From IMG/VR virus record IMGVR_UViG_3300021255_000054: a stretch of DNA of 64,000 bases. One strand, given 5' to 3'. Below, in pieces: positions 9,222-28,087 of this stretch. The position numbers and the translations under genes were made by a program. Positions within the stretch are counted from its first letter, which is position 1, and each line of letters opens with the position of its first letter. This DNA comes from a virus. Taxonomy: Duplodnaviria > Caudoviricetes. The notes beneath the pieces were generated by a model. It was not told where the DNA came from. It did no database searches and worked only from the letters and a program-made list of their open reading frames with translations.

Positions 9222-9711
9222 GGTAAACCTTCCTTTCTGTTAGGGCGATGATTTTTTTTATGCCCTATATAATAGTATAATGATTTTTTTCGTTCTGTCA
9301 ATCCCTTTTATAATGTTTTTTATGTTTTTATATGCAATTTTTATATGAAACGTTTCATGAAAACTATGCATATTTTTCATGAAATACGTTCATCAACACG
9401 CAATCGTTTTCGTGTCGTTTTGTTAACGTGTTCAATAATCAACAGAACGCCAGAAACCCTTATTTTTCAATGGTTTCAGGGCTTTTAGATGTGTCACATC
9501 CAACTTAAGTCCTTGCAGTTTTCCGACACTTGCGATATAATATGTATATGAAAAGGGGGGTTATGTAACATGAAACCGTTTCTGTGTTCAATAATTGACA
9601 AGTGTACAAAAAGTGCCATCTGGGGCGGATCCGCCGATCCGCAAGCAAAAGAGCGCACGCACGGCGCGCACTGAGCGTACACATGCACGCGCGTATACGC
9701 GCGTACGGGAT

Positions 9712-9778
9712 AAGCTGGAAGCTGGAAGCTGGAAACGCGCAGGCAAGCTGGAAGCTGAGAAAGGAGCTGACAAGCTGA
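9712..9778 (+). repeat. Cluster of 7 (A/G)AGCTG(G/A) heptamers
   Basis: taagctggaagctggaagctggaa...caagctggaagctgag...gagctgacaagctga. Confidence 0.85.
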
Positions 9779-10035
9779 ATGAATACAAGACAAACAATCG
9801 GAGCAGGGATCATGATGATGGGACTATTGCAAAGCGCGCTTTTAGGAACACCGATCTTTCTATTGGGATTTGGAGCACTTGGGGCGCTATGTATGATCCG
9901 AATTCATTAAGGGCGCGAGCCCTTCTTATAAAATTGGATGTTAAACATCCAATTTTCTTAGTTGACAGATAGATAAAGATATGATAATATATAATCGTTC
10001 CAAGGGAACGAATAAAGAAAGCGAGGTAAACAACA

Positions 10036-10308
10036 ATGACTATTACCAGCAACAACGGGCACAAATACGCACAGTCTAAAATTATTCGGTATGACAACGG
10101 CGCGATGTCTATGATCTCTTATACCACGACGGTATGCAAGGTTGATCCGAACGGATGGTTGACAGTCAACGGGCTTTATTCCCGTACAACCATCAAACAC
10201 ATCGGATGGTTCATGAGGGAATTAGGATTGACCTATCAGTTGGCAAAGGCGCTTTATATGGATGGTTTACAGTACAACTTGCACACGGGTGAGGTCAAGG
10301 CGCGGTGA
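10036..10308 (+). CDS. Hypothetical protein (array unit)
   Basis: Palindrome, TTGACA/TG-TAATAT promoter, GAGGT SD, intact ORF. Confidence 0.8.
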   Translation: MTITSNNGHKYAQSKIIRYDNGAMSMISYTTTVCKVDPNGWLTVNGLYSRTTIKHIGWFMRELGLTYQLAKALYMDGLQYNLHTGEVKAR

Positions 10309-10406
10309 GCGCCTTTATATTTTTAGATGTTAAACATCCAACTTTTCTCTTGCTTTTTTCTAAAAACTATGTTATACTATTATCATCAAAGAAGGAGGTT
10401 GGAGCA

Positions 10407-10547
10407 ATGAAAACTATTTATGAAGTATGGAATATTCGACATGAGACAATCGCCAAATTTTTAGACTTTGATCTCGCTAAACAGTTTATCAAAGACCATG
10501 GAGCACAAGCACGCTTTTGGTTTATTGTAGAATATAAGGAGCGGTGA
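10407..10547 (+). CDS. Small hypothetical protein (array unit)
   Basis: AAGGAGG SD; MKTIYEVW... Confidence 0.7.
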   Translation: MKTIYEVWNIRHETIAKFLDFDLAKQFIKDHGAQARFWFIVEYKER

Positions 10548-10645
10548 CTCCTTATAAAGTTAGATGTTAAACATCTAAAATCATATCTTGACAATCTAAT
10601 ATAATACGTATATAATGGTATCATCAAATGAGGGAGGGATTTCCA

Positions 10646-10837
10646 ATGACTATCAATTACACCATCACCGTTATCTCTAATGACGATCACGACATTCTGT
10701 TCCGCGCAAGCGGTACGCGGGAAGATTATAGCACGCCCACCTATATGATGAATGAATTGGGCCACCGCTATATGGATAGCACTGTTATCTATCATGATTT
10801 GACCAATGGTTTTAAAGTTGAAAAGTCCTTTGAATAA
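10646..10837 (+). CDS. Small hypothetical protein (array unit)
   Basis: GGGAGG SD; terminator overlaps the stop. Confidence 0.7.
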   Translation: MTINYTITVISNDDHDILFRASGTREDYSTPTYMMNELGHRYMDSTVIYHDLTNGFKVEKSFE

Positions 10838-10944
10838 AGGACTTTTTCTTATGTGTTTTTAGATGTTAAACATCCAAAAATGCCTATTGACAAATGATCT
10901 TTATAGATATATAATTGTATCATCAAATGAAGGAGGAACGAGCA

Positions 10945-11259
10945 ATGATCAACATTAGGAGCATTCGCAAGTTGGCTAACAACGACGGACTTACACTGAA
11001 AGCAGGAAAGATTATTAACTATAAGAGCGGCTATCAGGTCGCAGACTATGGGTACGAGCTGACAACAGCTGAAGAGGCTATCAAATGTGTGCGCAAGCTG
11101 AAAGGAAATTGTGGTATTTGGTATAGTGAAGGAATTTATTATATTGATCATTCCTTCCGTGTTAGTACAAAAAGAGAAGCAATCAGAATTGGAATTGAAC
11201 ATAATCAAATCTCAATTCTTAAATGGAAAGATAAGTCTCTTATCTATTGTACTCCATAA
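10945..11259 (+). CDS. Hypothetical protein, weak resemblance to phage SAM-lyase-like fold
   Basis: GIW...YID...EAIRIGIEHNQISI pattern; AAGGAGG SD. Confidence 0.6.
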   Translation: MINIRSIRKLANNDGLTLKAGKIINYKSGYQVADYGYELTTAEEAIKCVRKLKGNCGIWYSEGIYYIDHSFRVSTKREAIRIGIEHNQISILKWKDKSLIYCTP

Positions 11260-11382
11260 TGGAGTACAATTTTATTTTTAAAAGTTAGATGTTAAACATC
11301 CAATTTTTACCTATTGACATATAAGACCGGACATGTTATTATATACTTGTCCAAAGGGACAGAAACGAAAGGAGCGATTTCA

Positions 11383-11631
11383 ATGATGACCAAATGGATT
11401 TCCGTCAACGTTAGCAACTTTGCTAATGATCCGGCCTGCAATAGCGGAACGATTTTCTATGAGGATAGCACAACCGGATTGAAGCTGCATTTGCATGTAT
11501 CACAGGAAGAAGGAAAAGAAGTATTAAAGCAAGCTGAAAAGTTGCTCAACAAGCGAGCGGAATTCAATGTCAATCAGTTTAATCCTTCCATAACTTATTA
11601 TGAAATCAATGGATTTATTGACTGGGATTAA
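11383..11631 (+). CDS. Hypothetical protein (array unit)
   Basis: AAGGAG SD, promoter and terminator. Confidence 0.7.
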   Translation: MMTKWISVNVSNFANDPACNSGTIFYEDSTTGLKLHLHVSQEEGKEVLKQAEKLLNKRAEFNVNQFNPSITYYEINGFIDWD

Positions 11632-11733
11632 TCCCAGTCTTATTATTTTAGATGTTAAACATCTAATTTATAAGACTTGCGAGACTCTAAAAGGTATGAT
11701 ATAATTAGGTATCAAATGAAGGAGGGATTCGCA

Positions 11734-11898
11734 ATGACTCAAGTTTATCTCGTTTGGTACACTCCAACTAATCAGACTATTGAAGCACTTTGGGGCGTAT
11801 ATGCAAATCGTAAAAATGCAGAACGAACCGCAGATTTTATTTTACTTAACCATTACGGCACAAATATTAAAATCAATGAAGAAGAAATAATGGACTAA
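11734..11898 (+). CDS. Small hypothetical protein (array unit)
   Basis: AAGGAGG SD; MTQVYLVW... Confidence 0.7.
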   Translation: MTQVYLVWYTPTNQTIEALWGVYANRKNAERTADFILLNHYGTNIKINEEEIMD

Positions 11899-12037
11899 AA
11901 TGAATTGCCCGAAACCGGGCAATTTCATTTTGAATATTTAGATGTTAAACATCTAACTTTATCTCTTGCAATATTCCCGAAAGTATGCTATTATATACTT
12001 GTCCGAAGGGACGAAAGAAAGAAAGGGGATTTGAAAC

Positions 12038-12205
12038 ATGATCGAGTATTATTGGATGCACAAAGAGGACGGTTACATCATTCCCGAAAGTCGGCTTGAA
12101 GATGATTGCTATCTCAACGGCTATGATGATGTGATTGACCCGTGTTCGGTTGAGTACGGCAATTTCAATCTCTATTATGAAAAGACCACCTTGCGCGTAA
12201 AGTAA
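12038..12205 (+). CDS. Small acidic hypothetical protein (not in ORF track)
   Basis: AAAGGGG SD; MIEYYWMHKEDG...RVK-TAA, followed by a terminator hairpin. Confidence 0.65.
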   Translation: MIEYYWMHKEDGYIIPESRLEDDCYLNGYDDVIDPCSVEYGNFNLYYEKTTLRVK

Positions 12206-12335
12206 AACGCGCGCATCCCGAAAGGGATGCATAAAAGTTAGATGTTAAACATCTAAATTTCCCTATTGACTTTCCTATATAAAGTGATATAATGATATTG
12301 TCCTCAGAGAGAGGATAAGAAAGGAGATTAGCATT

Positions 12336-12572
12336 ATGTGGTTGTTCTATTGTGACAATAGCGGATGGATTCCTATGGGGAACGATGGACAGATGAAAGT
12401 CCCGGCCCGCATCAGCACGCGCAAGCTGCACCAGCTGGCGGAAGCATTGCTCAGCGGACGAGCTGGAAGAATTTACCTTATGACAAGCTGGACCCAGCAG
12501 ATGTCCGAGCTTGGTCCGCGCGCTTTTGAAGAATATATCCAGCGCAATGGAAAAGTAGTGGTTCATTCGTGA
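12336..12572 (+). CDS. Hypothetical protein (array unit)
   Basis: AAGGAG SD; intact ORF. Confidence 0.75.
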   Translation: MWLFYCDNSGWIPMGNDGQMKVPARISTRKLHQLAEALLSGRAGRIYLMTSWTQQMSELGPRAFEEYIQRNGKVVVHS

Positions 12573-12689
12573 ACCACTATTTCATTTTAAAATATTTAGA
12601 TGTTAAACATCTAAAATAATATGTTGACATTTTCCCGATACTATGCTATTATATAATTGTCCAAAGGGACAGAAAGGATGGTAACTCAA

Positions 12690-12875
12690 ATGGATACTCG
12701 TTATATGATGACTACTACCTATACTGATTTCTCCACCAAATGTGAACGCAGTGATGATTTTTATACACTTATGCGAGCTGCATCTATTTACTGGGAAGAC
12801 CCAAGCTGCGTATATATTCATATTTGGGATAATGCGCTGGAAAAAGATATATTCTCATATGAACAGCCCTGTTAA
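12690..12875 (+). CDS. Small hypothetical protein (array unit)
   Basis: GAAAGG SD; intact ORF. Confidence 0.65.
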   Translation: MDTRYMMTTTYTDFSTKCERSDDFYTLMRAASIYWEDPSCVYIHIWDNALEKDIFSYEQPC

Positions 12876-12950
12876 GGGCTTTATTATTTTAGATGTTAAA
12901 CATCTAAATTCATCTCTTGACTTCTCTTATAATATATGATATTATACTAC

Positions 12951-13120
12951 TGTCGAAAGGGGGAAGGGAAGATGATTCCACCGGGTTAGTAGTCCCAAGG
13001 TCACGGGTTGGTACCGGACTGGCGGGATTATATGACGCAACCAACTGCCGCTAACTTGCCGTGGCGAAGCAAGCTGGTGAAATTGAGCCAATTGGCGGAT
13101 TGATCACCCGCCAATTCTTT
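12951..13120 (+). ncRNA. Putative structured small RNA occupying a whole array unit
   Basis: Palindrome and promoter, then a GC-rich segment with hairpins and terminator AATTGGCGG/CCGCCAATT-TTTT; no standard-code ORF. Confidence 0.55.
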
Positions 13121-13236
13121 TATGTAAATAATTAGATGTTAAACATCTAAAACTAACCCTTGACTTCTTCTCTTCTTTATGATATCATATAATTGTTCCA
13201 AGGGGAACGAAATAAATATGAGAGAAGGACACGAAC

Positions 13237-13476
13237 ATGACAATGACGATTGAAAAGAAACTCCGGGACTTCAACTTCTGGGGCGGTGCCGCTACCAACG
13301 CCGCGAAACTGACTCCTGAAGAGCTGGACACACTGGAATATCAGCTGGAAGAAATGATTGGCATTGACGAACCTTGGAGCACCACGGAGGTTAATGACTG
13401 GATGTGGTTCGACTTTGAAAGTATCTGCAACGAGTGGCTTAGAATTGATTATGAAGAAGTAATGGCGAGGACATAA
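13237..13476 (+). CDS. Acidic hypothetical protein (array unit)
   Basis: Intact ORF, SD, terminator. Confidence 0.75.
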   Translation: MTMTIEKKLRDFNFWGGAATNAAKLTPEELDTLEYQLEEMIGIDEPWSTTEVNDWMWFDFESICNEWLRIDYEEVMART

Positions 13477-13598
13477 TCCTCGCCTTTATTTCATTATAGA
13501 ATTTTAGATGTTAAACATCTAATTTTATAGTTTGACATTCTCCTTAAACTATGCTATTATATACTTGTTCCAAGGGGAACAGAAAGGAAGTATGAGAT

Positions 13599-13820
13599 AT
13601 GCTTAAAGTCACAAAGACATATGCGCGCACATTGTACGATATGGGAAAGCCCGTAATGATTATTCCGAATAAGATGCGCACTGATTCTTTTATGGCGTGC
13701 TGGCAAATAAAGCCGTTTAATGATCCAAACGCCAGCTTTGATAAGCTGGTAAATGCGATTAGCTATTATAATTGTTCTCCCGAAACTGGTTTGGGACTTG
13801 CATATTATACACAGGAATAA
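13599..13820 (+). CDS. Hypothetical protein (array unit)
   Basis: Intact ORF; YYNC..ETG motif. Confidence 0.75.
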   Translation: MLKVTKTYARTLYDMGKPVMIIPNKMRTDSFMACWQIKPFNDPNASFDKLVNAISYYNCSPETGLGLAYYTQE

Positions 13821-13942
13821 GGGCCTCGCCCTTATTTCATTTTAAAAAAGTTAGATGTTAAACATCTAATTTATATGATTGACTATTTCCTAATACTATG
13901 TTATAGTGTACTTGTCCAAAGGACAGAAAGGAAGTAAGAGCA

Positions 13943-14413
13943 ATGACAGATGAAGTTATCAAGGCTATGCAAGGCGACAAGAAGAAACACAAGGCGCGCA
14001 AATGGTGGCACAAGAACGGTTACAAGGTCATGCGCGTGATCCTGTTCCCGATCTGGATTGGTAGTATCCTGCTTGAAAAAGGGCGCAAATGGCTCAACAA
14101 TCAGCAGGAATGGAGCGAAGAACGCGCCACCGAAATTCTCAACTACTACATCCCGCGCGCGTCTAAATGGGATGATAAAGACAAGTGTCTTTACTTCTTC
14201 GACAATGGTATGGGCTGGAATTACAAACTTGCAAAGCGGTATCTCAAAAGGAAAGACCGCCGTTTCTGGAAAGTGCATTGCACTTGGTGGGGCGGCAAAA
14301 TGCGTACCCTGTTGATGGAAAAATTCGAGCTTGAAGGATTCACAAAAGAGCTTGGCAACTGTTCCGAAGGTTGGACAGAAATTTCTTTCGTACTGAATGA
14401 GAAAAAAGGTTAA
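13943..14413 (+). CDS. Trp/Lys-rich hypothetical protein with one hydrophobic segment
   Basis: Intact ORF, SD. Confidence 0.75.
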   Translation: MTDEVIKAMQGDKKKHKARKWWHKNGYKVMRVILFPIWIGSILLEKGRKWLNNQQEWSEERATEILNYYIPRASKWDDKDKCLYFFDNGMGWNYKLAKRYLKRKDRRFWKVHCTWWGGKMRTLLMEKFELEGFTKELGNCSEGWTEISFVLNEKKG

Positions 14414-14567
14414 CAAACCCTTTTTCTGTGGATGATAATTGTTAAGGCGCGCGGGCGCCTTTCTATTTTAGATGTTAAACATCTAACTTTTACCATTGAC
14501 TTTCTTATATAGGTATGATATATTATACTTGTTCCAAGAGAGAAGGAACAGAAAGGAAGTATGCAGT

Positions 14568-14822
14568 ATGACTAGAGTTGGGCCGTATCTGTGGGAAATT
14601 GATGTACAGGATATGAAACTTGAAGAACTTGACGCTCTACAGTCAATCGTCAATGATACGATCAAACAGCGCAGAATGGAACAGTGCTATGAAAAGAAAC
14701 TGCATGACCTGATTGATGAAGCCAAATCCAAGGGCGTATGCTTTAACTATAATGGTCTTTGCACTTGGATTTGTCTTACTGAAACACAGGACAAGATTTA
14801 CGCTTCTCCTGACGGGGATTAA
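14568..14822 (+). CDS. Hypothetical protein (array unit)
   Basis: AAAGGAAG SD; intact ORF. Confidence 0.65.
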   Translation: MTRVGPYLWEIDVQDMKLEELDALQSIVNDTIKQRRMEQCYEKKLHDLIDEAKSKGVCFNYNGLCTWICLTETQDKIYASPDGD

Positions 14823-14940
14823 TATCCCCAATTTTATTTTATTTTAAAATAAATTAGATGTTAAACATCTAACTTTCTCTGTTGACTTTCCTGTTACTAT
14901 ATGATATACTTACATCATCAAAGAAAGGGAGGCCACCACG

Positions 14941-15246
14941 ATGGAAATGACTTATCACGTAAAGGTTCAGAGGGCAAACCGGGTACAGCATATCATTAAT
15001 GATATCGGTATGGGCCAGATTGTTAAGGAGAAGTTTGTAAACAACTGCTACACCTGTATTACTGATACTGGCATTACCATTATCAAGTCAGCTGACAAGC
15101 TGAAGATTGTAACTATGTATGTTACAACCTACAGAGAGCTGGTAAAGGTTTATGAAGGAACCAAGCGGATTCCTCCGTACCTGAAGAAGCGGGTTGACCG
15201 CAATCAGTCTAAATATACTAATGATGGGAAAACAATTTGGAGGTAA
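14941..15246 (+). CDS. Hypothetical protein (array unit)
   Basis: GGGAGG SD; intact ORF. Confidence 0.75.
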   Translation: MEMTYHVKVQRANRVQHIINDIGMGQIVKEKFVNNCYTCITDTGITIIKSADKLKIVTMYVTTYRELVKVYEGTKRIPPYLKKRVDRNQSKYTNDGKTIWR

Positions 15247-15252
15247 GCTGAA

Positions 15253-15585
15253 ATGAAGATCGCAGTTACTCAATGGTATGAATTGACGGATGAACAGGTA
15301 CAAGAGTTAATTAATAATATGTATGAAGACTTAGACTCTGTACCAGCTATGAATTATGTTGAAGAAAGGTTAATGGATTATTGCGCTTCTATGTTCGCAG
15401 ATACTTTTGAAGTTACTAACAGCGATGATGAAGTTGAAGAAATCTACAATGAAGTTAAACGCAGGATTGAAAGCGACGTTAAATTACAGTTAAAGCGTAA
15501 AATTGCAGAACTTGAAAAAGAAATTGCTAAGAGTAGAGAAGAATTGAAAACCGCGCGGGAAAAACTTTTGAGAATGGACGAGTAA
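15253..15585 (+). CDS. Coiled-coil hypothetical protein
   Basis: GGAGGT SD; co-transcribed with the previous gene. Confidence 0.75.
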   Translation: MKIAVTQWYELTDEQVQELINNMYEDLDSVPAMNYVEERLMDYCASMFADTFEVTNSDDEVEEIYNEVKRRIESDVKLQLKRKIAELEKEIAKSREELKTAREKLLRMDE

Positions 15586-15679
15586 TCGTCCATTATTATA
15601 TTAGATGTTAAACATCTAATTCTAATATTTGACTTAATTTCATTTTTATGATATTATATCTATGCAAGGAGGGGATAAG

Positions 15680-16368
15680 ATGAGTAAGAAACAGAAACCC
15701 ACCCCTAAAACTTGGGTTGAAGTATTTCAAGGAGAACGGAAGGAGTTTCCACAGGGATATTGCGTCACTCGTATTATCCCAGACAAGCGCAAGAAAGCAC
15801 CAAAACATAAGGAAAGGGAGTTTGATGACTGATGCCTTGGTGGTGGGATGTTCGTAATGTAATCAATAATAAGTTGATTCGCTTTCTGTTAAATCGTTGT
15901 GTGATTGATAGTTGCACCCTTCGTAAAATTGTTTATAAAGTATCTAATTATGAATTACAGCCAATTATGGACGAGAAGGAAAAGGAGTTTGACGAATGAA
16001 ATATAAATGGGTTATCATGCAGGAACTTGAGGATAGTGGTTGCGCGAATCCTTATTTGATTGTAGATACCGAAAAGCGCGCCGAAGAACTATGCTATAAG
16101 TTAGAATCCGAAAACCCGGGCTTTATCTTCTGGTCTTATATGTGTAAGGAGGAATAATATGAATATTGTTACTCGTACCTATTACATCCCCCGTAACCAG
16201 ATTGGGCGCTATGTAATGAATTATATTGTTGAAAAGGTTGGTTGCTCTGTCGGTGAATTTAAGTTGAATCGTCAGGCCGAAACTATTCGTTTCTCTATCA
16301 CTTGCAAAATTAACGATGTACCTACCGTTGAAAAGATTTTGCGGCTTTATGATATGTTAGGGGAGTAA
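15680..16368 (+). CDS. Four translationally coupled small genes (15680-15832, 15832-15999, 15996-16157, 16159-16368)
   Basis: TGATG/ATGA overlaps, each with an SD, inside one palindrome-bounded unit. Confidence 0.65.
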
Positions 16369-16445
16369 TTTCCCCTTCAAATAATTAGATGTTAAACATC
16401 TAAAACAAAGCGTTGACTTTTCCCGAAATTTGAGTATAATAATAA

Positions 16446-16525
16446 TTGTTCCGAGGGACGGAAGGCGATGGAACACCGTGGCAAGTGCCGGCTTACCCAC
16501 AACTTGCGCACCGCCCCTCGAACAA
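16446..16525 (+). ncRNA. Putative ~80-nt hairpin RNA between tandem promoters
   Basis: TTGTTC(C)GAGGG pairs with CCCTCGAACAA leaving a bulged C; inner GCAAGT/ACTTGC stem. Confidence 0.55.
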
Positions 16526-16654
16526 AAAATTTTCAGACTAATACTTGACTTTCAAGTAGAAATCTGATATAATGAAGATGTTCCAAGGGAACAAAAATAA
16601 AATTGTGCAGGGCGGTCTGCCGTAAACTAAACCGCAGAGAAAAAGGAGTAAATT

Positions 16655-17146
16655 ATGAAGACTGCTGAAATTATTTCTAAGATCATGGAAATCCCCGGTG
16701 CTACTATGGGTCGTGCGAACAAGACCAACTTTATCGTTGTTCCTACTGAGGACGGTTACAGCAAGGTTAGCGTGACTGCCGCTCTGGCTAAGGACACCAA
16801 GAACCACAGCGCTTTCAATTATGAAGCCGCTGTTGCCGAGTACAAGGCTTGGGAAGCCGAAGCCGCTCTCCGCGCCGCTGAACGTGCTAACAAGCCCGTT
16901 AAGGTCAAGGGCCCCAACCCCGAAGCCGAAGCTCGCCGTCAGGCTCTTGATGCCGCCATCACCGCTCTTCCTTCCTTCACGAATGCTACTGCGACCGATG
17001 TGTTTAATATGTTTGCCGAGGGTGAACAGCCCAAGACCGTTATGCTTGTCGGTTCTGCTCTTAAGCGTCTTGTCGAAGCGGGCGTTGTAGTTGCTACCAA
17101 GTCCGAGGACGCCAAGGACAAGAAGACCTATTACACTAAGGCGTAA
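16655..17146 (+). CDS. Protein with C-terminal winged-helix domain
   Basis: ...VGSALKRLVEAGVVVATKSEDAKDKKTYYTKA; strong codon bias. Confidence 0.7.
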   Translation: MKTAEIISKIMEIPGATMGRANKTNFIVVPTEDGYSKVSVTAALAKDTKNHSAFNYEAAVAEYKAWEAEAALRAAERANKPVKVKGPNPEAEARRQALDAAITALPSFTNATATDVFNMFAEGEQPKTVMLVGSALKRLVEAGVVVATKSEDAKDKKTYYTKA

Positions 17147-17297
17147 TTCCCAGCCCCTAACGGGGCTTTTCTTTTTGGGATTCTTTTTAGATGTTAAACA
17201 TCTAACTTATTGTATTGCAATTTCATTTTAAATATGATATTATACTTATGTAAACGAAAGGAGAAGGATACTCCCTAAAACCAGAAAGGAAAATGTT

Positions 17298-19646: not shown

Positions 19647-19803
19647 TGCTCACCTTTTTCTTTTACAAGGAATTAGATGTTAAACATCTAAAATTGTATA
19701 CAGTATTCTTTTAAAAAAATGCTTGACAATTTTTCAAATTTATAGTATACTTATTCCAGAAACGGAGAAGGAAAACTCCACAAACCAGAGAGGAGCAATG
19801 CTT

Positions 19804-20214
19804 ATGAATAAGGCACAGCTTGAAACCGCTATTCGCAATGACTTTCTTGATTCTATTATGAAGTATATCTCTGAATCCCGTGAAACTGATGTGCTCCCTG
19901 TTAGCGCAAACGAACTTGCCGTTCCTTGTCTGGATGCTGAGGGCAACGAAAAGTGGGTTCTGATTAAGGTTTCTATTCCTCGTGGTAGCCGTAACGGCGA
20001 AGGCGGATACGAACCTTATGATGGTTATTCTGTCGCAGAAGATTACCAGTTTGACCTTGCTGATAAGGCAAAAAAGAAACGTGTAGCGGAAGAACAGAAA
20101 GCCAAGAAAATCGCGGCTGATGAAAAGAAGCGTGCGGAAAAGAAAGCGCTTGCCGAAGCGAATAAGAATCTGAAAGAACTCCGTAAGATTAAGGTTACTC
20201 CCGAAAGGGAGTAA
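19804..20214 (+). CDS. Hypothetical protein with Lys-rich coiled-coil tail
   Basis: Intact ORF; architecture similar to the next gene. Confidence 0.7.
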   Translation: MNKAQLETAIRNDFLDSIMKYISESRETDVLPVSANELAVPCLDAEGNEKWVLIKVSIPRGSRNGEGGYEPYDGYSVAEDYQFDLADKAKKKRVAEEQKAKKIAADEKKRAEKKALAEANKNLKELRKIKVTPERE

Positions 20215-20341
20215 CCCAATTTCATCCCGAGTTATTAGATGTTAAACATCTAATTATTCTATGTTGACATTTCCCAATATCTATGCTATACTATCCACGA
20301 AAGGTGAAGGAAAACACCAGAAAACCAGAAAGGAAATTGAA

Positions 20342-20722
20342 ATGCCTAAGATTTCTAAGACTGTTGTTGACAAGGCTCTGCGTGATGGTATTTTCTTTGA
20401 TATGTTCCAGAATGATTGTGGAATGTATGACTATGTAAAAATCAATGACCGCCAGTATGGCACTATCATTACCGATTTGAACGGCATTGAACGCTATGTG
20501 CGCATTGGCGCGATTGTCGCAGAAGAACGTGAGGATATGACTGCGCGCGAACTTATGCAGAAGGAAATTGATGAGTATAAGGCCAAGCAGGCGGAAAAGG
20601 CCGAAAAGGCTAAGAAGAAGGAAGAAAAGATTGCCAAGGATAAGGCCAAGCGCCAGAAGGAACAGGAACAGGAAGAAGAAGATGACCCTAACCAGTTTCT
20701 TCCTAATGAAGTGACGGTTTAA
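20342..20722 (+). CDS. Hypothetical protein with Lys/Glu coiled-coil tail
   Basis: AAAGGA SD; intact ORF. Confidence 0.7.
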   Translation: MPKISKTVVDKALRDGIFFDMFQNDCGMYDYVKINDRQYGTIITDLNGIERYVRIGAIVAEEREDMTARELMQKEIDEYKAKQAEKAEKAKKKEEKIAKDKAKRQKEQEQEEEDDPNQFLPNEVTV

Positions 20723-20740
20723 TAGAAAGGAATGATAATA

Positions 20741-21010
20741 ATGTTGAAAGTCACAACCTATCCTCACATTGAAGATTCTGAAATTGCTCGTCTGTGCGGT
20801 GAAGATGTAGCCGAACATATGTCTCTTCACTATGAAGCCAAAAATGGTACAAGTGAAAGCTTTTGTGTTCTGACAGAAGAAGAAATCAAAGAACTTGAAG
20901 AAGATGAAGATGATTGGTTTGATGAAAAATGGAAACTTGGCCTGACTAAAATGTTACTGGAAAATGGCTTCAAGCACGGCGATAGAGTATATATTGATTT
21001 CTTTTGGTAA
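20741..21010 (+). CDS. Acidic hypothetical protein
   Basis: Intact ORF. Confidence 0.65.
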   Translation: MLKVTTYPHIEDSEIARLCGEDVAEHMSLHYEAKNGTSESFCVLTEEEIKELEEDEDDWFDEKWKLGLTKMLLENGFKHGDRVYIDFFW

Positions 21011-21027
21011 GAGTGGAGGAAAAGAAA

Positions 21028-21219
21028 ATGCCTGATGAAAAATGCCCCAATTGCTTATCGGGAGAATATGATGTTGATAATTACTGGGATGATTTTGATG
21101 AAGACGGTGGTATCAGAGTATGGGAATGTATTTGTTCCTCCTGTCATAAAAAATTTGATATCACATATGAATATAAATGCATCAAAACAACAGTTGAAAT
21201 AGAGGTTAGCGCAAGCTAA
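21028..21219 (+). CDS. Small Zn-ribbon protein
   Basis: CPNC...CSSC. Confidence 0.65.
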   Translation: MPDEKCPNCLSGEYDVDNYWDDFDEDGGIRVWECICSSCHKKFDITYEYKCIKTTVEIEVSAS

Positions 21220-21354
21220 CCTCTTTCTTTATATATTAGATGTTAAACATCTAATTCTTTCCCTTGCAATTTCCCTATAACTATGGTATTATATCATTGT
21301 TCCAAGGGGAACACGAAAGAGGAAGGATACCTCACAAACCAGAAAGGTTACTAT

Positions 21355-22341
21355 ATGCGCAAAGAACTCCGTTATATGGTTTTGGACACTGAGACCGCCA
21401 CTCTTCCCTTTGCTAATGAAATTGCCCAGAATAATCCTGAGAAGAAGAAAAAAATTGCTATCGCTCGCCCTCTTGTGTATGATATTGGTTGGACTATCAC
21501 CAACCGCAAGGGCGAGATTTTGGATAAGAAGCAGTTTCTGATTGCCGAAACTTTTGCCGTTCCCGCCGTGTTCAATACTGCATATTATGCAGAAAAGCGG
21601 CCGCTCTATCTGGAAATGTTGAAAGAGAACAAGACCTCTATCAAGCCGTGGGGCGAAGTGATGGAACTCTTTGTTGAAGATCTTCAGCAGGTCGATGCCG
21701 TTGGGGCATACAATGCAATGTTTGACTTCAAGAAAGCAATTCCCTTTACTGAACTGTACATTAACAAACTGTACAGCCCTGATTATCAGAATTGGGAGTT
21801 CCTTCAGCGCAAGATGTGTACTAAGATTGCTAACGAGAAGTATCAGAAGAAGGAAGAAAAAGAATTTGATGGTGATTTCTTCACCTTCCGTGGCAAGTCT
21901 TATCCTCTGTTTGACCTTTGGGGACTTGCGACCAAGCACCTTTTGAATAACGCCACTTATAAGAAACAGTGCCTTGACCATAATCTTTTAACCGCAAGCG
22001 GAACATTCTTCAAGACTAGCGCCGAATCTTCTTTTCAATATCTATGCGACCGCTATGATTTTGAAGAAAGTCACACCGCACTTGATGACGCTATGATTGA
22101 AACCCATATTCTTTCTTGTGTAGCCAAGAAGCACGCTATCTCTACTGGAATTACTTTCTTCCCCTTCCGTGAATTGGGTACTACTACTGAATTTGTAATG
22201 CGTAGGAAAACTCCTCACATTAATGAAGTAATGGTAGTATATGAAGCAATCATAGCATATATTGAAACCAAGGAAGAATCTCGGTACGTGGTTGGATTGC
22301 GTAATATGTTGAAAGAATTGGAAGAATATATGGCGGGATAA
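21355..22341 (+). CDS. DEDDh 3'-5' exonuclease (second paralog)
   Basis: LDTETAT, AYNAMFD, HTALDDA; shares AYY..KRP and SAE motifs with 18294..19052. Confidence 0.85.
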   Translation: MRKELRYMVLDTETATLPFANEIAQNNPEKKKKIAIARPLVYDIGWTITNRKGEILDKKQFLIAETFAVPAVFNTAYYAEKRPLYLEMLKENKTSIKPWGEVMELFVEDLQQVDAVGAYNAMFDFKKAIPFTELYINKLYSPDYQNWEFLQRKMCTKIANEKYQKKEEKEFDGDFFTFRGKSYPLFDLWGLATKHLLNNATYKKQCLDHNLLTASGTFFKTSAESSFQYLCDRYDFEESHTALDDAMIETHILSCVAKKHAISTGITFFPFRELGTTTEFVMRRKTPHINEVMVVYEAIIAYIETKEESRYVVGLRNMLKELEEYMAG

Positions 22342-22473
22342 CCGCCATATTTCATTTCAGATTATTAGATGTTAAACATCTAAAAAGAAATATTGACTTT
22401 CTCCTAAAATTGAGTATAATATAATCATCAGGTGAAGGAAAACACCGAAACACCAGAAAGGAAGTTTAAAACT

Positions 22474-22683
22474 ATGAAGAAGCCGATTACCGTTCGTGTC
22501 AAGAAAACACTGACTTTTGATGAAACTGACGTGTGTAGCATCGCCAAAGATATGTCATATACTTTCTGGAACTCAGGATATTTTGAAGACATTGAACCCA
22601 GCGATATTGATGATGAAGATTTCGCAGGTCTGGTTCGCGCCATCGCCGATGAGTTTCAGAAAATTGTGGAGGAAGATAAATAA
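22474..22683 (+). CDS. Small acidic hypothetical protein
   Basis: Conserved leader and SD. Confidence 0.65.
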   Translation: MKKPITVRVKKTLTFDETDVCSIAKDMSYTFWNSGYFEDIEPSDIDDEDFAGLVRAIADEFQKIVEEDK

Positions 22684-22786
22684 TATGGAAATTAATGTGC
22701 GTGCGAAACATATATTCAATGAGGACTAATAGTCCTCTTTTTTATTTATAATAATTAGATGTTAAACATCTAATAAAAAATGGCGC

Positions 22787-23205
22787 TTATCGCGCCAACT
22801 TCAGAATCCGTTTGAACCAACTAACTTTCTCTTCGTAAATAGGTTCAACAGTAATTTCATAGATAATCTTATGCTTTTCTCTATCCATCAAATACAGACG
22901 AGGACTTCCCATATAATACCATACAGTTTTTCCTCTCTCGTGAACAAAATCCAAAATAGCTTTATCAGGAATATGTCTATCAAATTCCTGACCGCCATAC
23001 ATAATATCCAAACCATCTTTCTTAGGGATATACACAAGGCGCTTTTTCATTATCCAATCACCACCTGAATTTCCATATTCTCTCCACACTTATACTGAAT
23101 CAAATCATTAGCCCGCTTTTCCGCTTCTTCCATAGTATTAAAAACTTCATTGACCTCAACAAAATAACCAAGGGGCCAGCACGTACCAGTCAGACGATAC
23201 TTCAT
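22787..23205 (-). CDS. Inverted unit with two coupled genes (23205-23050 and 23050-22787)
   Basis: Minus-strand TTGACT/TATAAT promoter 9 nt from palindrome 23274; TAATG overlap. Confidence 0.65.
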
Positions 23206-23336
23206 TCCATCATCGCTCCCTTCATTTGATAATTACATTATACTCAGATTTTCCTAAAAGTCAACTACCATTATTAGATGTTAAACATCTAACTATTAGT
23301 GGTTGACTTTTCTCTAATTTGTGATATACTTATAAC

Positions 23337-23404
23337 TGTCAGAGGGAGAACGGGAGCGGAAACAAATCTCCTTGGAAACAGAAGACCCGATGTTTCTCTT
23401 GACC
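23337..23404 (+). ncRNA. Putative ~70-nt hairpin RNA between tandem promoters
   Basis: GTCAGAGGGAGAA pairs with TTTCTCTTGAC; inner CGGG/CCCG stem. Confidence 0.45.
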
Positions 23405-23522
23405 GAAAATAAAAGGGAGAAAATTTTCGGAAACCTCTTGACAAGCTTCCAAAACTGTGGTACAATAACCACGAAAGATGAAGGGAAGGAAAACCCTAAA
23501 AACCAGAAAGGAAATGAAACCT

Positions 23523-23852
23523 ATGAAAAAGACTACTATGACCGCCATCGTTACCGCTCTGACTGCTATCGACTCTGAGAAGTATTCCGACCTGATCGCC
23601 GAAGTTAATGCCGAACTGAACAAGGGCGCGGAGCAGAAGCAGAAGAATGCCGATGCCTATGAGTCCATCCACGATCTGGTTGTTGGCAATCTGGGCGATG
23701 CTCCTTGCACCTGCGCCGAACTGTATGAAGCCATCAAGGATGAACTGCCTGATGGTATGGGCAAGGGCAAGGTTCAGTATGCTCTGACTCACCTGTGGCA
23801 GGATGAGATTGTGAAGATTGAGGGTAAGCCGAATACCTATCGGAGGGCGTAA
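23523..23852 (+). CDS. Coiled-coil plus winged-helix protein
   Basis: TCAELYEAIKDELPDGMGKGKVQYALTHLW...EGKPNTY. Confidence 0.75.
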   Translation: MKKTTMTAIVTALTAIDSEKYSDLIAEVNAELNKGAEQKQKNADAYESIHDLVVGNLGDAPCTCAELYEAIKDELPDGMGKGKVQYALTHLWQDEIVKIEGKPNTYRRA

Positions 23853-23862
23853 GCCCTCCACG

Positions 23863-24201
23863 GGTTGTGCGGTAAGACATCGGCTCGCACAGATACGTAG
23901 AACATCGGTGGATTAAGCGTATCAACCACGAGGAGATTTCTGAAGGTTTACAGTGTGGCTAAACAACTAAAGCCTTCCCACGAGGGTTTCCAAGGGCTTT
24001 CAGTGTGGTTAAACAACATAAGCCCTTTTATATGGCGATGGAGGGACACGGCCTACCCCACAGTTAGCAAGTTCGACTCTTGCCGTTGCCACGACTTACC
24101 TAGTGGCAGAAGCCCTATCCACTTAAAAACGTGGGCGGATGAAGTAGACCATCAAAGCAACTACAGTGAGGGCGCTTACCCCACAACCGCCTTCGGGCGG
24201 T
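23863..24201 (+). ncRNA. ~330-nt structured RNA with a tRNA-like domain lacking an anticodon arm
   Basis: Terminal 14-bp stem 23863-76/24175-88; duplicated hairpins; acceptor-like GGCGATG/CGTTGCC plus T-arm GCAAG-TTCGACT-CTTGC; terminator 24186-24206. Confidence 0.7.
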
Positions 24202-24311
24202 ATTTTTATTTTCAATTATTAGATGTTAAACATCTAATTAAAGGTATTGCAATTTTCCTATAATATGATATAATAGCATTGTTCCAAGAGGAACGGAAAG
24301 GATGAAGTAAA

Positions 24312-24515
24312 ATGGAAAAACCTATTCGCAAATTTCAGTACATCAATGCATATGGTATCAAGAAACAACTTAATGTATATGAAATGGTCAATAATAAGTA
24401 TCCAGTAGAACTGTGGGCAACTAGATATGGGGAATATTGTGGGTCAGGTGAAATGACGAAACAAGAACTTAACGATTATTTAGAGCACTTTGGTATTACG
24501 GAAAGGATGGAATAA
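24312..24515 (+). CDS. Small hypothetical protein
   Basis: Intact ORF, SD. Confidence 0.7.
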   Translation: MEKPIRKFQYINAYGIKKQLNVYEMVNNKYPVELWATRYGEYCGSGEMTKQELNDYLEHFGITERME

Positions 24516-24516
24516 A

Positions 24517-24759
24517 ATGAAAATTTATGAAGTTATCGAGTATGTAGATAATGCAGAAAATGCTTTTGGCTACTATTCTTCTCTTGAAAAGGCACAGCAG
24601 GGAATTTTGACACGAGTAAAAGATGCTTATACAGATGAAGAGATGAAAGCTTTTCATTTTGATGAAGATGGATATGGCTATTCGACCACAGAAAATGAAT
24701 GGGTAGCCGCTTGTGATTATGTAATCTTTGAACACGAATTGGATAAGGAGATGGAGTAA
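24517..24759 (+). CDS. Small acidic hypothetical protein
   Basis: Intact ORF. Confidence 0.7.
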   Translation: MKIYEVIEYVDNAENAFGYYSSLEKAQQGILTRVKDAYTDEEMKAFHFDEDGYGYSTTENEWVAACDYVIFEHELDKEME

Positions 24760-24760
24760 A

Positions 24761-25015
24761 ATGCAGACAATTAAAAACTGGTTCGGCATTGAAACTTCCT
24801 ATAAGTTTGAATGGAATGACCTTCGTTGCGGCATTACTATCTTGAATGTAGTTCTGATTATGCTCTTTGGCTTGCAGGTATCTTGGTTCGGGCTTGCAAT
24901 CGCGCTCTTTGGTGTGTGTAAAGACCTCTCCCAGCATCGGCATATCAATGATATTCTTATGCACTTGTCTAGTGTAGTATTGAATGTATACTTCCTTTCC
25001 CTTCTGTATAGGTAG
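24761..25015 (+). CDS. Small membrane protein (ends at TAG)
   Basis: Two to three hydrophobic segments; the TAG lies in the terminator stem. Confidence 0.65.
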   Translation: MQTIKNWFGIETSYKFEWNDLRCGITILNVVLIMLFGLQVSWFGLAIALFGVCKDLSQHRHINDILMHLSSVVLNVYFLSLLYR

Positions 25016-25127
25016 GCAATGCCTATCTTCCATACTTAGATGTTAAACATCTAAAAGTTTCTCTTGCATTTTTTCCAAAGTATGATATAATTATATCGTT
25101 CCAAGGGAACAGAAAGGATGATTGAGA

Positions 25128-25560
25128 ATGCGTGAACTATATGAAAAATACTACACTATCAGATTGTGGTTTCAGCCCGATGACCGTGTGACCCCAGACA
25201 TCATTGACCTTGAAGGCGAGTATGATTCTGAAGAAGAAGCAATAGTATTCGCGCGAGAACACATTCCTCTTACTTTTGGATGGGAACATATTATTGTTCC
25301 TCATTATCGAAAACTTTCAAATTTAAAGTTGACAAATACTCCTAATGGTGATATAATGATGATGATCTCGAAAGGAAAGGAAAGGAGTAATGAGAGTGAA
25401 TAACATCATTCCGATTGATTCTGAGGAAAAGGAACTTTGTTGTTTGTGTATATTAGGTCTTGTGCTTTATGATTATATGACACCTTCGGCAAGACAATTA
25501 TATGATACTCTTACTGAAGAAGACAAGCAAGAGATTAAGAAAAAATTTATAAAAGGATAA
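25128..25560 (+). CDS. Two small hypothetical genes (25128-25403, 25390-25560)
   Basis: SDs present; internal TTGACA/TATAAT promoter near 25329. Confidence 0.55.
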
Positions 25561-25648
25561 TGAGTATGAAGTATCAGTACTACAAGGGAGAGTAAAACTC
25601 TCCCTTTTATTTTTAGATGTTAAACATCTAAATAAAAAAGTATGCACA

Positions 25649-26197
25649 TTAGTGCATACAATTCGTGAAATTACAGTAGCCAGCCGAACAAGCATAATCT
25701 ACAACTACTCCCTTTCCCTTATACATACCCACATTCCAAGCGTGCAGGTCACACATATATTTCTTCAGGAAAGCCCGTTCATCATCATCCCAACCATACT
25801 CCATTTCAGCATAATCATAGTTCCCAACATGATTGACTTTCCGCATAGCATAATAATACTTTCCGTCAATCATAAAGCGGTACATAGGCGCGAGAAGATA
25901 GGAATAAGGAGTCCGACTCAGCTTCTGGTAAACTTTATATTCCTGTTCGCATCCACCAATACGGCCGCAAGCCTTATCATCATAATCTATCTTAATCACA
26001 TAGTCCGGCCCAATCAGGCAGATACGCGCGCTCCCATAATCCATCTCAATATGGCGATGATATTCCATATTAAAGGACTCTACTCCTTCTTCTACATAGC
26101 CACGGCGATCATATTTATTCATTATATCAAAATCAGGAATATATTGCGCAAACTGCTTCATAAACTTTTCAGCCCGAATCTGCCAAGGATTAGCCAT
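25649..26197 (-). CDS. Protein-kinase-like protein
   Basis: GSARI...VIK, helix-C Glu (EQEY), catalytic loop DLHAWN, DYA in the DFG position. Confidence 0.75.
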   Translation of the reverse strand: MANPWQIRAEKFMKQFAQYIPDFDIMNKYDRRGYVEEGVESFNMEYHRHIEMDYGSARICLIGPDYVIKIDYDDKACGRIGGCEQEYKVYQKLSRTPYSYLLAPMYRFMIDGKYYYAMRKVNHVGNYDYAEMEYGWDDDERAFLKKYMCDLHAWNVGMYKGKGVVVDYACSAGYCNFTNCMH

Positions 26198-26307
26198 CTC
26201 TCAAACACCCCTTTCTTGATTACGGGATAAGTATATCATAAGTTAAGAAAAGAGTCAATAGGATATTTTAGATGTTTAACATCTAACTTACTGAGGGGCT
26301 TTCGCCC

Positions 26308-26751
26308 TCAGTCGATAATATCTTCAACAGGAACATTATACCATTCCTTAATCCGTTTATACAACATCCGTTTAGTACCACCAAACATCCAACTATCCTC
26401 AGTTTCTACTAACTGATTAGTATCAAACAAAACAATATCAAGCACATCACTATAATAGCCATTCTGCTCATTGTAACACGGCACGAAGAAAGACCGCTGT
26501 CCGCATAACCTAATTCCTGCTCTCCTTCTCCACGCTACTTCTTCAATTCGCAAATCAGAAAAATCTGTATCCATCAATCCGGCTTCATCTTTAATATAAT
26601 CCCAATTAGCATATACATTCTCACAGCAATCCTGACTATGAGTATCGATCAGAAGCCACCCATTATCAAATAAAATACCACCATTGGCATCAAATGAAGT
26701 CTTACTCAGAATCTCATCACCATCATAAACAAACCGCGCAATCTTAACCAT
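26308..26751 (-). CDS. Hypothetical protein (QDCCE / NGYYS family)
   Basis: Intact ORF with the conserved leader on the minus strand. Confidence 0.7.
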   Translation of the reverse strand: MVKIARFVYDGDEILSKTSFDANGGILFDNGWLLIDTHSQDCCENVYANWDYIKDEAGLMDTDFSDLRIEEVAWRRRAGIRLCGQRSFFVPCYNEQNGYYSDVLDIVLFDTNQLVETEDSWMFGGTKRMLYKRIKEWYNVPVEDIID

Positions 26752-26868
26752 AACTTACTCCCTTCTGGTTTCTAAGGTATCCTTCCTTTTATGTATGTAT
26801 TATATAATAAAGTAATAGAAAAGTCAATAAGGAATTTTAGATGTTAAACATCTAACTTCTCAAGACCG

Positions 26869-27273
26869 TCAAACGGTCTTGCAATAGAAACACCATTTAA
26901 TATCAAAAATATATTTCAATTCAAATCCTTCTGATTCAAGCAGATGCCGCATTCCCGCATTATCATCCCACGGAGTTGCCCCAACATTACCGTGTACAAT
27001 TTTAGTAATTTCTTGTAGAGCATATCGAGCGATACCTTTACCTTGATTTTTCTTATTACAAATACATAATCTTTTAATAGCGGTATAATTATATTGCGGT
27101 TCGGGTACAAGCGAAACAGTCGCCAATACTTTCTCGTTATCCGCAACAACATACAGCCGCCGCTGTCTATAATCCAAGTCCACTTGTGCCGGAGTAAGAT
27201 ACGTAAGATGCTTATATCTTAAAGCATTAATAACTTTCATTAAATCTTTATGTGTTGCTAATCTCAATTCCAT
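26869..27273 (-). CDS. GNAT-family acetyltransferase
   Basis: Acetyl-CoA motif QGKGIA; N..MRHLLESEGF. Confidence 0.8.
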   Translation of the reverse strand: MELRLATHKDLMKVINALRYKHLTYLTPAQVDLDYRQRRLYVVADNEKVLATVSLVPEPQYNYTAIKRLCICNKKNQGKGIARYALQEITKIVHGNVGATPWDDNAGMRHLLESEGFELKYIFDIKWCFYCKTV

Positions 27274-27373
27274 ACCATACGCTCCCTTCAGGTGATAGCT
27301 ATATTATAGCATGAATAGGAGAAAAGTCAAGCGACATTTTTAGATGTATTACATCTAAATTTATAAAGAAGGC

Positions 27374-27988
27374 TCACGCCTTCTTCTCTGCAATTATTTT
27401 AAATATAGCCGGATTACTAAATGCTTCACATAATTTATAATAAGCAGTTTCATTTACATAAAACCATTCATTAGCTCTCTGAGCTTTAGCATAAGCATAT
27501 TTTTCTAAATATTGATGGCAAAAACGTTCTGCTCTATCCGACTTTGTAGTTTCATAATATCCACCAATATATAGCATAGGATTATATGTAGCATAAGAAG
27601 ATACACGAGAATAAAGATTCTTCGCTCTTCCAACCTTAACCAAATAATATTTCTCGCCAGCGGGATTGATTCCAATCATTCCAAGAAAGTACACTCCCTC
27701 TGTACAAGGCAGCTCATCTGTTTTGGCACAATTGATTTCTAATGTAGGAATTTCATCTTTTAATGTTTCATCTTTTTTATGCACTCCCGCTTTATCATAT
27801 ACATAATGAAATTCTAAGCCATATCTGGCATTTGCACTCAAAGGGGAACGAAAATCATGATAAATACATTCCAATGTAGCTTCAGAAATATTTCCATCTT
27901 CATCTGAAAAGAACTCAACCATATTATTCCAGTGATATGTAGCAATACGTTCTTCAATTTCCTGTTCATATTTATACATTCTTTCCAT
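27374..27988 (-). CDS. T5orf172/GIY-YIG-like domain protein
   Basis: GVYFL...VKVGRAKNLYSRVSSY..NP...EWF. Confidence 0.7.
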   Translation of the reverse strand: MERMYKYEQEIEERIATYHWNNMVEFFSDEDGNISEATLECIYHDFRSPLSANARYGLEFHYVYDKAGVHKKDETLKDEIPTLEINCAKTDELPCTEGVYFLGMIGINPAGEKYYLVKVGRAKNLYSRVSSYATYNPMLYIGGYYETTKSDRAERFCHQYLEKYAYAKAQRANEWFYVNETAYYKLCEAFSNPAIFKIIAEKKA

Positions 27989-28087
27989 TCTCCCTTCACT
28001 TCATGAGTACATTATATCAGAAATTTATGAAAAGTCAATAATATAAATTAGATGTTATACATCTAATTTCACTCCCTGTCAAATATT

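Follow-up and report, generated by a model that had tools for sequence, protein, structure and literature searches.

What is the role of a 19-bp palindrome that bounds every one of 34 small gene cassettes in a phage genome? The palindrome, TTAGATGTTAAACATCTAA, recurs over 18.6 kb of a 64,000-nucleotide (nt) stretch of DNA (hereafter the window), which comprises bases 81,718-145,717 of the 189,572-bp IMG/VR virus record IMGVR_UViG_3300021255_000054. A preliminary description of the window, made from the sequence alone, had taken the palindrome for an operator, for the junction of integron-like cassette shuffling, or for both. According to our analysis both halves of that proposal hold in outline, whereas the integron analogy fails. 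In our view it is likely that the array is an operator regulon in which the operator is also a hotspot for short-homology recombination.

Organization of the array

With up to three mismatches allowed, the 19-mer occurs at 35 sites at window positions 9485-28066, against a chance expectation of 0.09 from shuffled sequence, and no further site was found in the complete 189,572-bp genome. Of these, 27 match exactly in the (+) orientation and one in the (-) orientation (at 26268), and seven are variants (at 9485, 9934, 10323, 10859, 11285, 27340 and 28048), which agrees exactly with the count given earlier. The spacing, previously put at about 240-1130 bp, was measured as 237 to 1129 bp. The palindromes start at 9485, 9934, 10323, 10560, 10859, 11285, 11648, 11938, 12238, 12596, 12889, 13132, 13504, 13851, 14468, 14854, 15601, 16385, 17187, 17608, 18189, 19070, 19673, 20235, 21236, 22365, 22755, 23274, 24219, 25036, 25613, 26268, 26837, 27340 and 28048, and the 34 cassettes that they bound are contiguous. 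The core of the palindrome is TTAGATGT-N3-ACATCTAA, in which the two 8-bp half-sites (TTRGRTGT) have their centres 11 bp apart.

Nearly every interval had been described as a complete unit of promoter, leader, Shine-Dalgarno site, gene and terminator, and the flanks of all copies show this. The order is a GC-rich hairpin with a T-run, the palindrome, 9-10 nt, a -35 box (TTGAC(A/T) or TTGCA), 16-17 nt, a TGnTATAAT-like -10 box, a leader, the Shine-Dalgarno site and ATG. A promoter of this kind (TTGACA/TTGACT-16/17-TGnTATAAT-like) adjoins 33 of the 35 palindromes; the one at 10588-10616 (+), which begins 9 nt past the palindrome at 10560, matches TTGACA-17-TATAAT at 12 of 12 positions. The gap between palindrome and -35 box is longer in two exceptions only, 20 nt at 17608 and 31 nt at 19673. 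The terminator hairpin lies directly 5' of nearly every palindrome-promoter, at a loose distance of about 0-16 nt. In formal scans the array held 101 promoter-like and 44 terminator-like sites, where shuffles gave 59.9 +/- 7.6 and 12.0 +/- 4.2, respectively. Each cassette is an autonomous transcription unit with its own sigma-A promoter and intrinsic terminator.

The first 26 cassettes (9485-22773), each arranged as palindrome, promoter, leader, gene or genes and terminator, are on the (+) strand. The palindrome that closes this run (22755-22773) carries no -35 or -10 box on either side and stands between convergent terminators, a (+) terminator GAGGACTAATAGTCCTC to its left and a (-) terminator GGCGCTTATCGCGCC to its right. 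It is followed by a lone inverted cassette (22755-23292, -) with genes at 22787-23089 and 23050-23205 and the -35 box at 23264. The next palindrome (23274-23292) is common to two divergent promoters (at 23264, -, and 23303, +), separated from them by gaps of 9 and 10 nt. Three (+) cassettes (23274-25631) lead to a second palindrome without a promoter (25613-25631), again at a convergent junction with terminators at 25584-25606 (+) and 25659-25640 (-). The last four cassettes (25613-28066) are on the (-) strand and hold the gene termed K (25649-26197), a gene at 26308-26751, a GNAT gene (26869-27273) and a T5orf172 gene (27374-27988). The five inverted units reported earlier are therefore the one at 22755-23274 and the four within 25613-28066.

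Conservation and phasing of the palindrome

The exact 19-mer was found in about 25 IMG/VR contigs (56 stretches), and a search with one of the array proteins (protein B, see below) added 19 contigs, giving about 45 related phage contigs with the same kind of array. In the relatives with the exact 19-mer it always forms arrays, of 20-41 sites over 10-20 kb, and the cargo of the window shares 65-78% nucleotide identity with them. Conservation was assessed over 625 sites in the 26 arrays with this type of palindrome; 524 of the sites have one adjacent promoter. In these 524, the 16 positions of TTAGATGT-N3-ACATCTAA are at least 97% invariant and the central three bases are variable.

The distance from the palindrome to the promoter is also constrained. 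From the end of the palindrome to the -35 box it is 9 nt in 415 of the 524 sites, 8 nt in 46 and 10 nt in 23, and the outlying gaps fall into classes of 18-21 nt (12 sites), 28-31 nt (20) and 39-40 nt (4) with almost none between. When the count was extended to 39 arrays, 621 sites had the 9-nt gap and the outer classes held 24, 32 and 15. The promoters with long gaps have unrelated spacer, promoter and leader sequences, which indicates that they do not descend from a single variant. Gaps that grow in steps of about 10 bp are the hallmark of a protein whose face on the helix is fixed with respect to RNA polymerase. If the spacer is taken as 17 bp and the start site is placed about 7 nt downstream of the -10 box, the dyad centre would lie near -54, or else near -64, -74 or -84. 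Phasing of this kind suggests that the protein is a dimer and acts on RNA polymerase.

Lineages differ in the palindrome in a regular way. In the more distant contigs the corresponding place is taken by a variant, which is TTAGGTGT-N3-ACACCTAA (at 9 loci), TTGGATGT-N3-ACATCCAA or TTAGGTGG-N3-CCACCTAA. Each variant is mirrored in both half-sites and is usually uniform within a genome (for example, in 62 of 62 half-sites). In four mixed genomes asymmetric hybrids are common, and in one of them (L115) the 16 symmetric and 17 asymmetric palindromes fit random assortment of half-site types. Each half-site is thus under its own constraint, and positions 3 and 5 accept either purine. The palindrome is thus operator-like, as had been proposed, in its invariant sequence, its phased and fixed distance and its mirrored lineage variants; the regulator that the proposal calls for was not found in the searches described below.

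Recombination at the palindrome

Close comparisons were made within three pairs of arrays that are 93-97% identical. Collinear alignments within such arrays break every 1-2 kb; a 10.4 kb stretch just outside one array is unbroken. Among the 300 alignment ends that fall inside arrays, a palindrome is no more than 10 nt away in 41% and no more than 5 nt away in 30%, compared to 8% and 6% for random positions. A set of 29 clean indels consists of whole cassettes of 225-1,054 bp. All four ends lie within 25 nt of a palindrome in 17 of the 29; in most of the remainder one or more of the junction ends are at a palindrome, the common sequence often reaching into the adjoining promoter. Identity common to both ends of an indel extends over 23-81 bp. 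When five indels were viewed at the nucleotide level, homology to the left flank ended and homology to the right flank began at the palindrome, and the central bases came from the left copy in some indels and from the right copy in others, which places the exchange inside the 19-mer.

In more distant relatives the order of the core genes (A-B-C-D1-E-F...D2/G) is kept, between a sigma-factor-like and a helicase-like gene. Accessory cassettes (gnat, K, p, s, m and q) occupy differing positions and orientations. The gnat and K cassettes each carry a single gene and run from palindrome to palindrome with almost the same length (482-507 bp and 592-693 bp, respectively) wherever they are placed. Of 23 divergent junctions, about 15 have a single palindrome with a promoter 8-10 nt to either side, and 34 of 85 palindromes without a promoter are flanked by hairpins on both sides. 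Convergent promoter-less palindromes and palindromes common to divergent promoters are the footprints expected of inversion by exchange between palindromes. Relatives therefore display the gain, loss, relocation and inversion of units, with junctions at the palindrome, by which shuffling had been predicted to reveal itself. A conserved unit order, which had been named as evidence to the contrary, is seen in part: the core order is largely kept, and the accessory cassettes alone shuffle.

A tyrosine or serine recombinase, which the preliminary description had suggested looking for, is not encoded in the complete genome. A six-frame search with stops read through gave no match to Phage_integrase (PF00589) and none to Resolvase, RecA, RecT or ERF, and positive controls were recovered. 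A Sak4-type AAA_24 protein (genome 35,022-36,020) was the sole recombination or annealing function among the six families searched. A recombinase-driven, integron-like system is not supported, as there is no such recombinase. Exchange by short homology, or by annealing at the longest common identity, is the economical explanation.

A probable shared operator and crossover site

These data fit a scheme in which the host sigma-A RNA polymerase would read each standard-code cassette as an independent early unit. We infer that a dimeric, sequence-specific protein binds the palindrome on one face of the helix, about 54 bp 5' of the presumed start site, and that it may also sit one, two or three turns further upstream. 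Acting on RNA polymerase from this position, it would switch about 34 early promoters together. The promoters are already near consensus, which makes coordinated early shut-off a likelier outcome than activation. The palindrome is at the same time the longest sequence common to all units, and it is identical on both strands, so that it could serve as a crossover point in direct or inverted alignment. Crossover there would delete, insert, relocate or invert cassettes, and would homogenise the palindromes within a genome.

Several observations weigh against this scheme. Strong promoters without a palindrome occur inside four units of the window as well as outside the array, and similar ones are found in the arrays of relatives. 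Those in the array (16545-16573, and at 19228, 23438 and 25329, all +) are near-consensus and each stands behind an A-rich tract. Three are located about 130-160 nt past a palindrome promoter and directly 5' of core genes (16655, E1 at 19308 and E2 at 23523). The palindrome is accordingly not required for promoter function, and it marks one class of early promoters rather than being a promoter component. Palindromes without a promoter are more degenerate than the promoter-associated ones, which speaks for an operator, but they are still mostly perfect in their core (81%, compared to 92%), and they could have a promoter-independent function or be recent or homogenised copies. The placement at -54 depends on predicted start sites. 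Regarding the crossovers, many of the indel pairs are not phylogenetically independent, and breakpoints would be expected in intergenic DNA anyway.

The search for the binding protein belongs to the same side of the balance, as no candidate was confirmed among the core-protein, helix-turn-helix (HTH) and covariation searches. Searches of the core cargo against Pfam, PHROGs and PDB sequences gave no DNA-binding family, and core proteins A and B, although modelled with confidence, have no DNA-binding fold. A Pfam scan of 127 other open reading frames (ORFs) gave two HTH_3 proteins from elsewhere in the genome, which were rejected because they are absent from complete array-bearing relatives. Core family E, which has a winged-helix-like C-terminus and HTH_24, Mnd1 and HARE-HTH as weak neighbours, is a lead only. 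In no core array protein family do residues track the palindrome type. Together with the uniformity of the type in each genome, this absence of fixed differences points to concerted evolution of the copies, which is a sign of frequent exchange among them.

Alternative explanations

The palindrome could instead be an insulator or roadblock, at which a bound protein halts read-through from both directions and has no part in initiation. In every case it separates a terminator from the unit that follows, and it is kept at convergent junctions that have no promoter; its symmetry would suit a two-way block, and elongation-stopping repressor sites of cluster A mycobacteriophages are a precedent (PMC9283540). 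However, the distance to the terminator varies from about 0 to 16 nt while that to the -35 box is fixed at 9 nt and phased. Efficient intrinsic terminators are already in place, and the known stoperators are asymmetric, orientation-dependent and belong to temperate phages. We therefore find this explanation rather unlikely.

The failure to find a conserved phage-encoded DNA-binding protein would be accounted for if the palindrome were the site of a host transcription factor, a conserved host operator borrowed by the phages so that early expression is tied to host physiology. A factor that acts early must also be present when the DNA enters. This explanation is rather unlikely, since the core motif forms no recognisable regulon in bacteria: among 185,579 species genomes it matched at chance level, and what exceeded chance consisted of binned phage fragments and one leader in Bacillaceae. 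Lineage variants that are uniform in each genome are also better explained by a phage-borne factor or by concerted evolution. A literature search with the half-site sequences gave nothing relevant. As a separate observation, the Bacillaceae leader is a Neobacillus/Bacillus locus conserved in many members of the family (L145, L153, L155, L156, L160, L170, L186, L189, L195, L198 and others), in which TTAGATGT-N3-ACATCTAA forms a hairpin in the transcribed leader about 35 nt after the -10 box. We judged it a coincidence, probably an unrelated cis-regulatory RNA hairpin, and rejected it as a related site.

Crossovers inside the 19-mer might also be the work of a dedicated integron-like or homing system, in which an unrecognised recombinase or nuclease acts on the palindrome and the link to the promoter is secondary. 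Candidates would be the T5orf172/GIY-YIG-clan protein (27374-27988) or a protein of new fold; genes of GIY-YIG type are present, and many array proteins are without a known fold. Such an enzyme would explain why there is exactly one palindrome at each boundary, promoter-less convergent junctions included, and why cassettes relocate and invert from palindrome to palindrome. On the other hand, the complete genome is without a tyrosine or serine recombinase, and the T5orf172 gene is present in 3 of 25 array segments only. A pure recombination site would leave the phased spacing to the -35 box unexplained. Junction homology often runs through the promoter (58-81 bp), as homology-driven exchange predicts, and the core gene order is largely kept. 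It is thus improbable that a phage enzyme of an unrecognised family targets the palindrome and that we are looking at true cassette capture and shuffling in a lytic phage. Were it so, the array would be a functional analogue of the integron with self-expressed cassettes, in which the site is also read by a regulator, and the rapid genome-wide switching of palindrome type would reflect enzyme-driven gene conversion.

A purely structural element with no specific protein (a cruciform, or an RNA hairpin acting as a back-up terminator or RNase III site) would suit the perfect inverted repeat and the mirrored lineage changes that preserve pairing, but it is very improbable, because within a genome the sequence itself is invariant and not pairing alone, asymmetric hybrids that would mispair are common, the AT-rich stem has a weak hairpin potential (-5.8 kcal/mol) and no U-tract of its own, and the palindrome lies outside the main transcripts, between terminator and promoter.

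Relation to known systems

With the shared operator and crossover site as the preferred reading, the array is akin to the promoter-early stem-loop (PeSL) cassettes of T4-type phages, in which homologous recombination between the motifs has been proposed to drive modular shuffling (Arbiol et al. 2010, PMC2839356; Comeau et al. 2014, PMC4122927). Both have a repeated terminator and a strong early promoter of sigma-70 type before ORFans in hyperplastic regions, and in both the junctions of indels or replacements between close relatives fall in the motif. In the PeSL the stem-loop is the GC-rich terminator, at a variable place within the promoter (phi1/RB49), whereas here the terminator adjoins the promoter. 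The array in addition has a separate, invariant, AT-rich and phased palindrome of 19 bp as the minimal crossover site, which PeSLs do not have, and it forms one contiguous 18.6-kb block in a phage in which TAG is recoded and whose host is apparently a Firmicutes. Some genes are T4-like (topoisomerase II, NrdD, RNA ligase), but promoters and Shine-Dalgarno sites are of Firmicutes type, and the phage is not a T4-type myovirus.

The stoperators of L5 and other cluster A phages resemble the array in that dozens of copies of one short intergenic site serve a single regulator and vary among lineages (PMC9283540). They differ in being asymmetric, orientation-dependent 13-mers that block elongation in lysogenic immunity, whereas the sites studied here are palindromic, phased with the -35 box and restricted to a single early region, in a genome without an integrase. 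Integrons likewise are arrays of small, unrelated mobile genes bounded by an inverted-repeat element, with content that differs among relatives. However, no IntI is found here, the 19-bp perfect palindrome is unlike the imperfect attC of 57-141 bp with its R and L boxes, each cassette is served by a promoter and a terminator of its own rather than by a common Pc, and the core order persists. The operators of KorA and KorB in plasmid RK2 are also many copies of one intergenic site under coordinated control. In the terminal-redundancy module of SPO1 small early genes are clustered, each with a strong sigma-A promoter and a terminator; to our knowledge no invariant palindrome at unit boundaries has been reported for host-takeover modules of the SPO1 type. 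The array is akin to PeSL cassettes, neither an integron nor a stoperator system, and is an example that is striking and convenient to analyse rather than a new principle. What is new relative to the PeSL is the phased, operator-like palindrome as minimal crossover site, the contiguity of the array and its presence in a clade of TAG-recoded Firmicutes phages.

The array as the early region of a recoded phage

The ends of the record overlap by 107 bp, which indicates a circular assembly. In the standard code almost no long ORFs are found at genome 53-176 kb. When TAG is read as sense, ORFs of 4,525, 3,255 and 2,131 aa appear and the polymerase is fused to a total of 1,323 aa. At genome 165-179 kb (L073:5546-19349) there is a cluster of 25 tRNAs, the first of which is an 85-nt tRNA(CUA). 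These ORFs and the tRNA(CUA) identify a phage in which TAG is recoded. In the array, genes stop at TAA (35), TGA (9) or TAG (1), and the density of TAG is 8.6 per kb compared to 14-19 elsewhere, which makes the array the largest TAG-poor block. According to a published model, recoded phages hold their early genes in the standard code of the host (bioRxiv 10.1101/2021.08.26.457843), and the avoidance of TAG in the array fits the code switch of that model. That the array genes are mostly ORFans and nearly free of TAG marks it as an early region, and the consensus sigma-A promoters, strong Shine-Dalgarno sites and small ORFan genes mark it as one of the host-takeover type.

The genes on both sides of the array carry in-frame TAG. 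To its left are a portal gene, a large terminase gene and a sigma-factor-like gene (6912-8222, -), and to its right is a helicase-like gene (28737-30122, -); the sigma-factor-like and helicase-like genes are syntenic in relatives. The sigma-factor-like gene is a candidate for a middle or late sigma factor that would be made only after the code switch. Other recognisable genes of the genome encode topoisomerase II subunits, a large DNA polymerase, NrdD, RNA ligase and enzymes of nicotinamide adenine dinucleotide (NAD) salvage. An HTH_3 (Cro/Xre-type) gene of 66 aa lies at 35902-36102 (+), just past an extended -10 promoter at 35751 that matches the consensus at 12 of 12 positions. It has one in-frame TAG, so its translation would await the suppressor tRNA.

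No match was obtained when the array and 20 kb of the window were compared by megablast with 50,697 INPHARED phage records. The host is probably a ruminant-gut Firmicutes. Short contigs of metagenome-assembled genomes that carry several palindromes were binned with Acutalibacteraceae, Oscillospiraceae and other Bacillota, one of them from the rectum of a water deer; such binning is a weak hint to the host.

Cargo of the cassettes

Few of the 45 called array genes belong to a family in Pfam or PHROGs. The families found were NT5C/HAD, GNAT, T5orf172/GIY-YIG-clan and two paralogs of phrog_20187. No homolog was found in 25 other array segments for 11 of the 45 genes, and six more have homologs in one segment only. 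From the cargo listed earlier, the GNAT (26869-27273) and HAD (17726-18172) genes were recovered, whereas the kinase and the exonucleases found no support in Pfam or PHROGs and the winged-helix protein is a weak lead confined to the family at 19308 and 23523.

The core genes are all on the (+) strand. Gene A (10945-11259) encodes a basic protein of 104 aa with an apparently new alpha/beta fold, and gene B (14941-15246) a basic protein of 101 aa with a weak resemblance to BECR/RelE-type RNases. Protein B is the most conserved early protein, with 58-81% identity and presence in 17 of 25 segments. AlphaFold models of A and B had pLDDT (predicted local distance difference test) values of 93 and 90, respectively, and a Foldseek search of both against PDB gave nothing significant; the best, weak structural neighbours of the B model were CdiA-CT, colicin D and RelE-type RNases. 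Going by this model, protein B may be a takeover nuclease that targets host RNA. Gene C (17726-18172) encodes an NT5C/HAD 5'-deoxynucleotidase, and D1 (18294-19052) is a phrog_20187 gene with a paralog D2 at 21355-22341. The multi-copy family E (19308-19646, with a paralog at 23523-23852) has a weak match to DUF6958 in addition to the winged-helix-like lead. Genes F (19804-20214) and G (20342-20722) encode proteins of 136 and 126 aa, both with a K/E-rich tail. On the (-) strand, the GNAT acetyltransferase cassette (26869-27273) is mobile between arrays, and the T5orf172/GIY-YIG-clan gene (27374-27988) is the one with the limited distribution given above.

Some units had been described as encoding small RNAs. 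Scans of the window for tRNAs and Rfam families gave nothing above threshold, and this description is not upheld. A sub-threshold match to 'Termite-leu' at 25579-25644 was rejected, as it is merely a terminator with the palindrome. Folding of two stretches that seemed to hold RNA only gave unconvincing z-scores (-1.2 and -2.1). The near-empty unit at 12889-13132 has a strong Shine-Dalgarno site and ATG before a frame of 43 codons (12972-13103, +), which meets two in-frame TAGs in succession after five codons and is then open. The frame could encode a peptide whose translation has to await the code switch, or it may be due to chance.

Two types of leader recur and move together with the promoter module. 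The first, which is frequent among the units, has a hairpin GTTCC-AAGG-GGAAC at the predicted start site and the second has the form GTGAAGGAAAACAC...AAACCAGAAAGG; examples are found at 13190-13215 and 17680-17720. These leaders may be mRNA stabilisers or processing sites.

Implications

Early regions of phages are the main reservoir of ORFan genes for host takeover and anti-defence, and their fast turnover is poorly understood beyond the T4-type coliphages. In the clade described here, with more than 40 arrays of 20-40 cassettes each and a recognisable 19-mer at the boundary of each unit, the gain, loss, transfer and inversion of cassettes can be read from metagenomes. Moreover, the array delimits the standard-code early genes of a TAG-recoded phage, which makes the model of code-switch timing testable. 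Finally, an invariant and phased operator with lineage variants predicts that these phages have a conserved, currently unrecognisable regulator of the host RNA polymerase.

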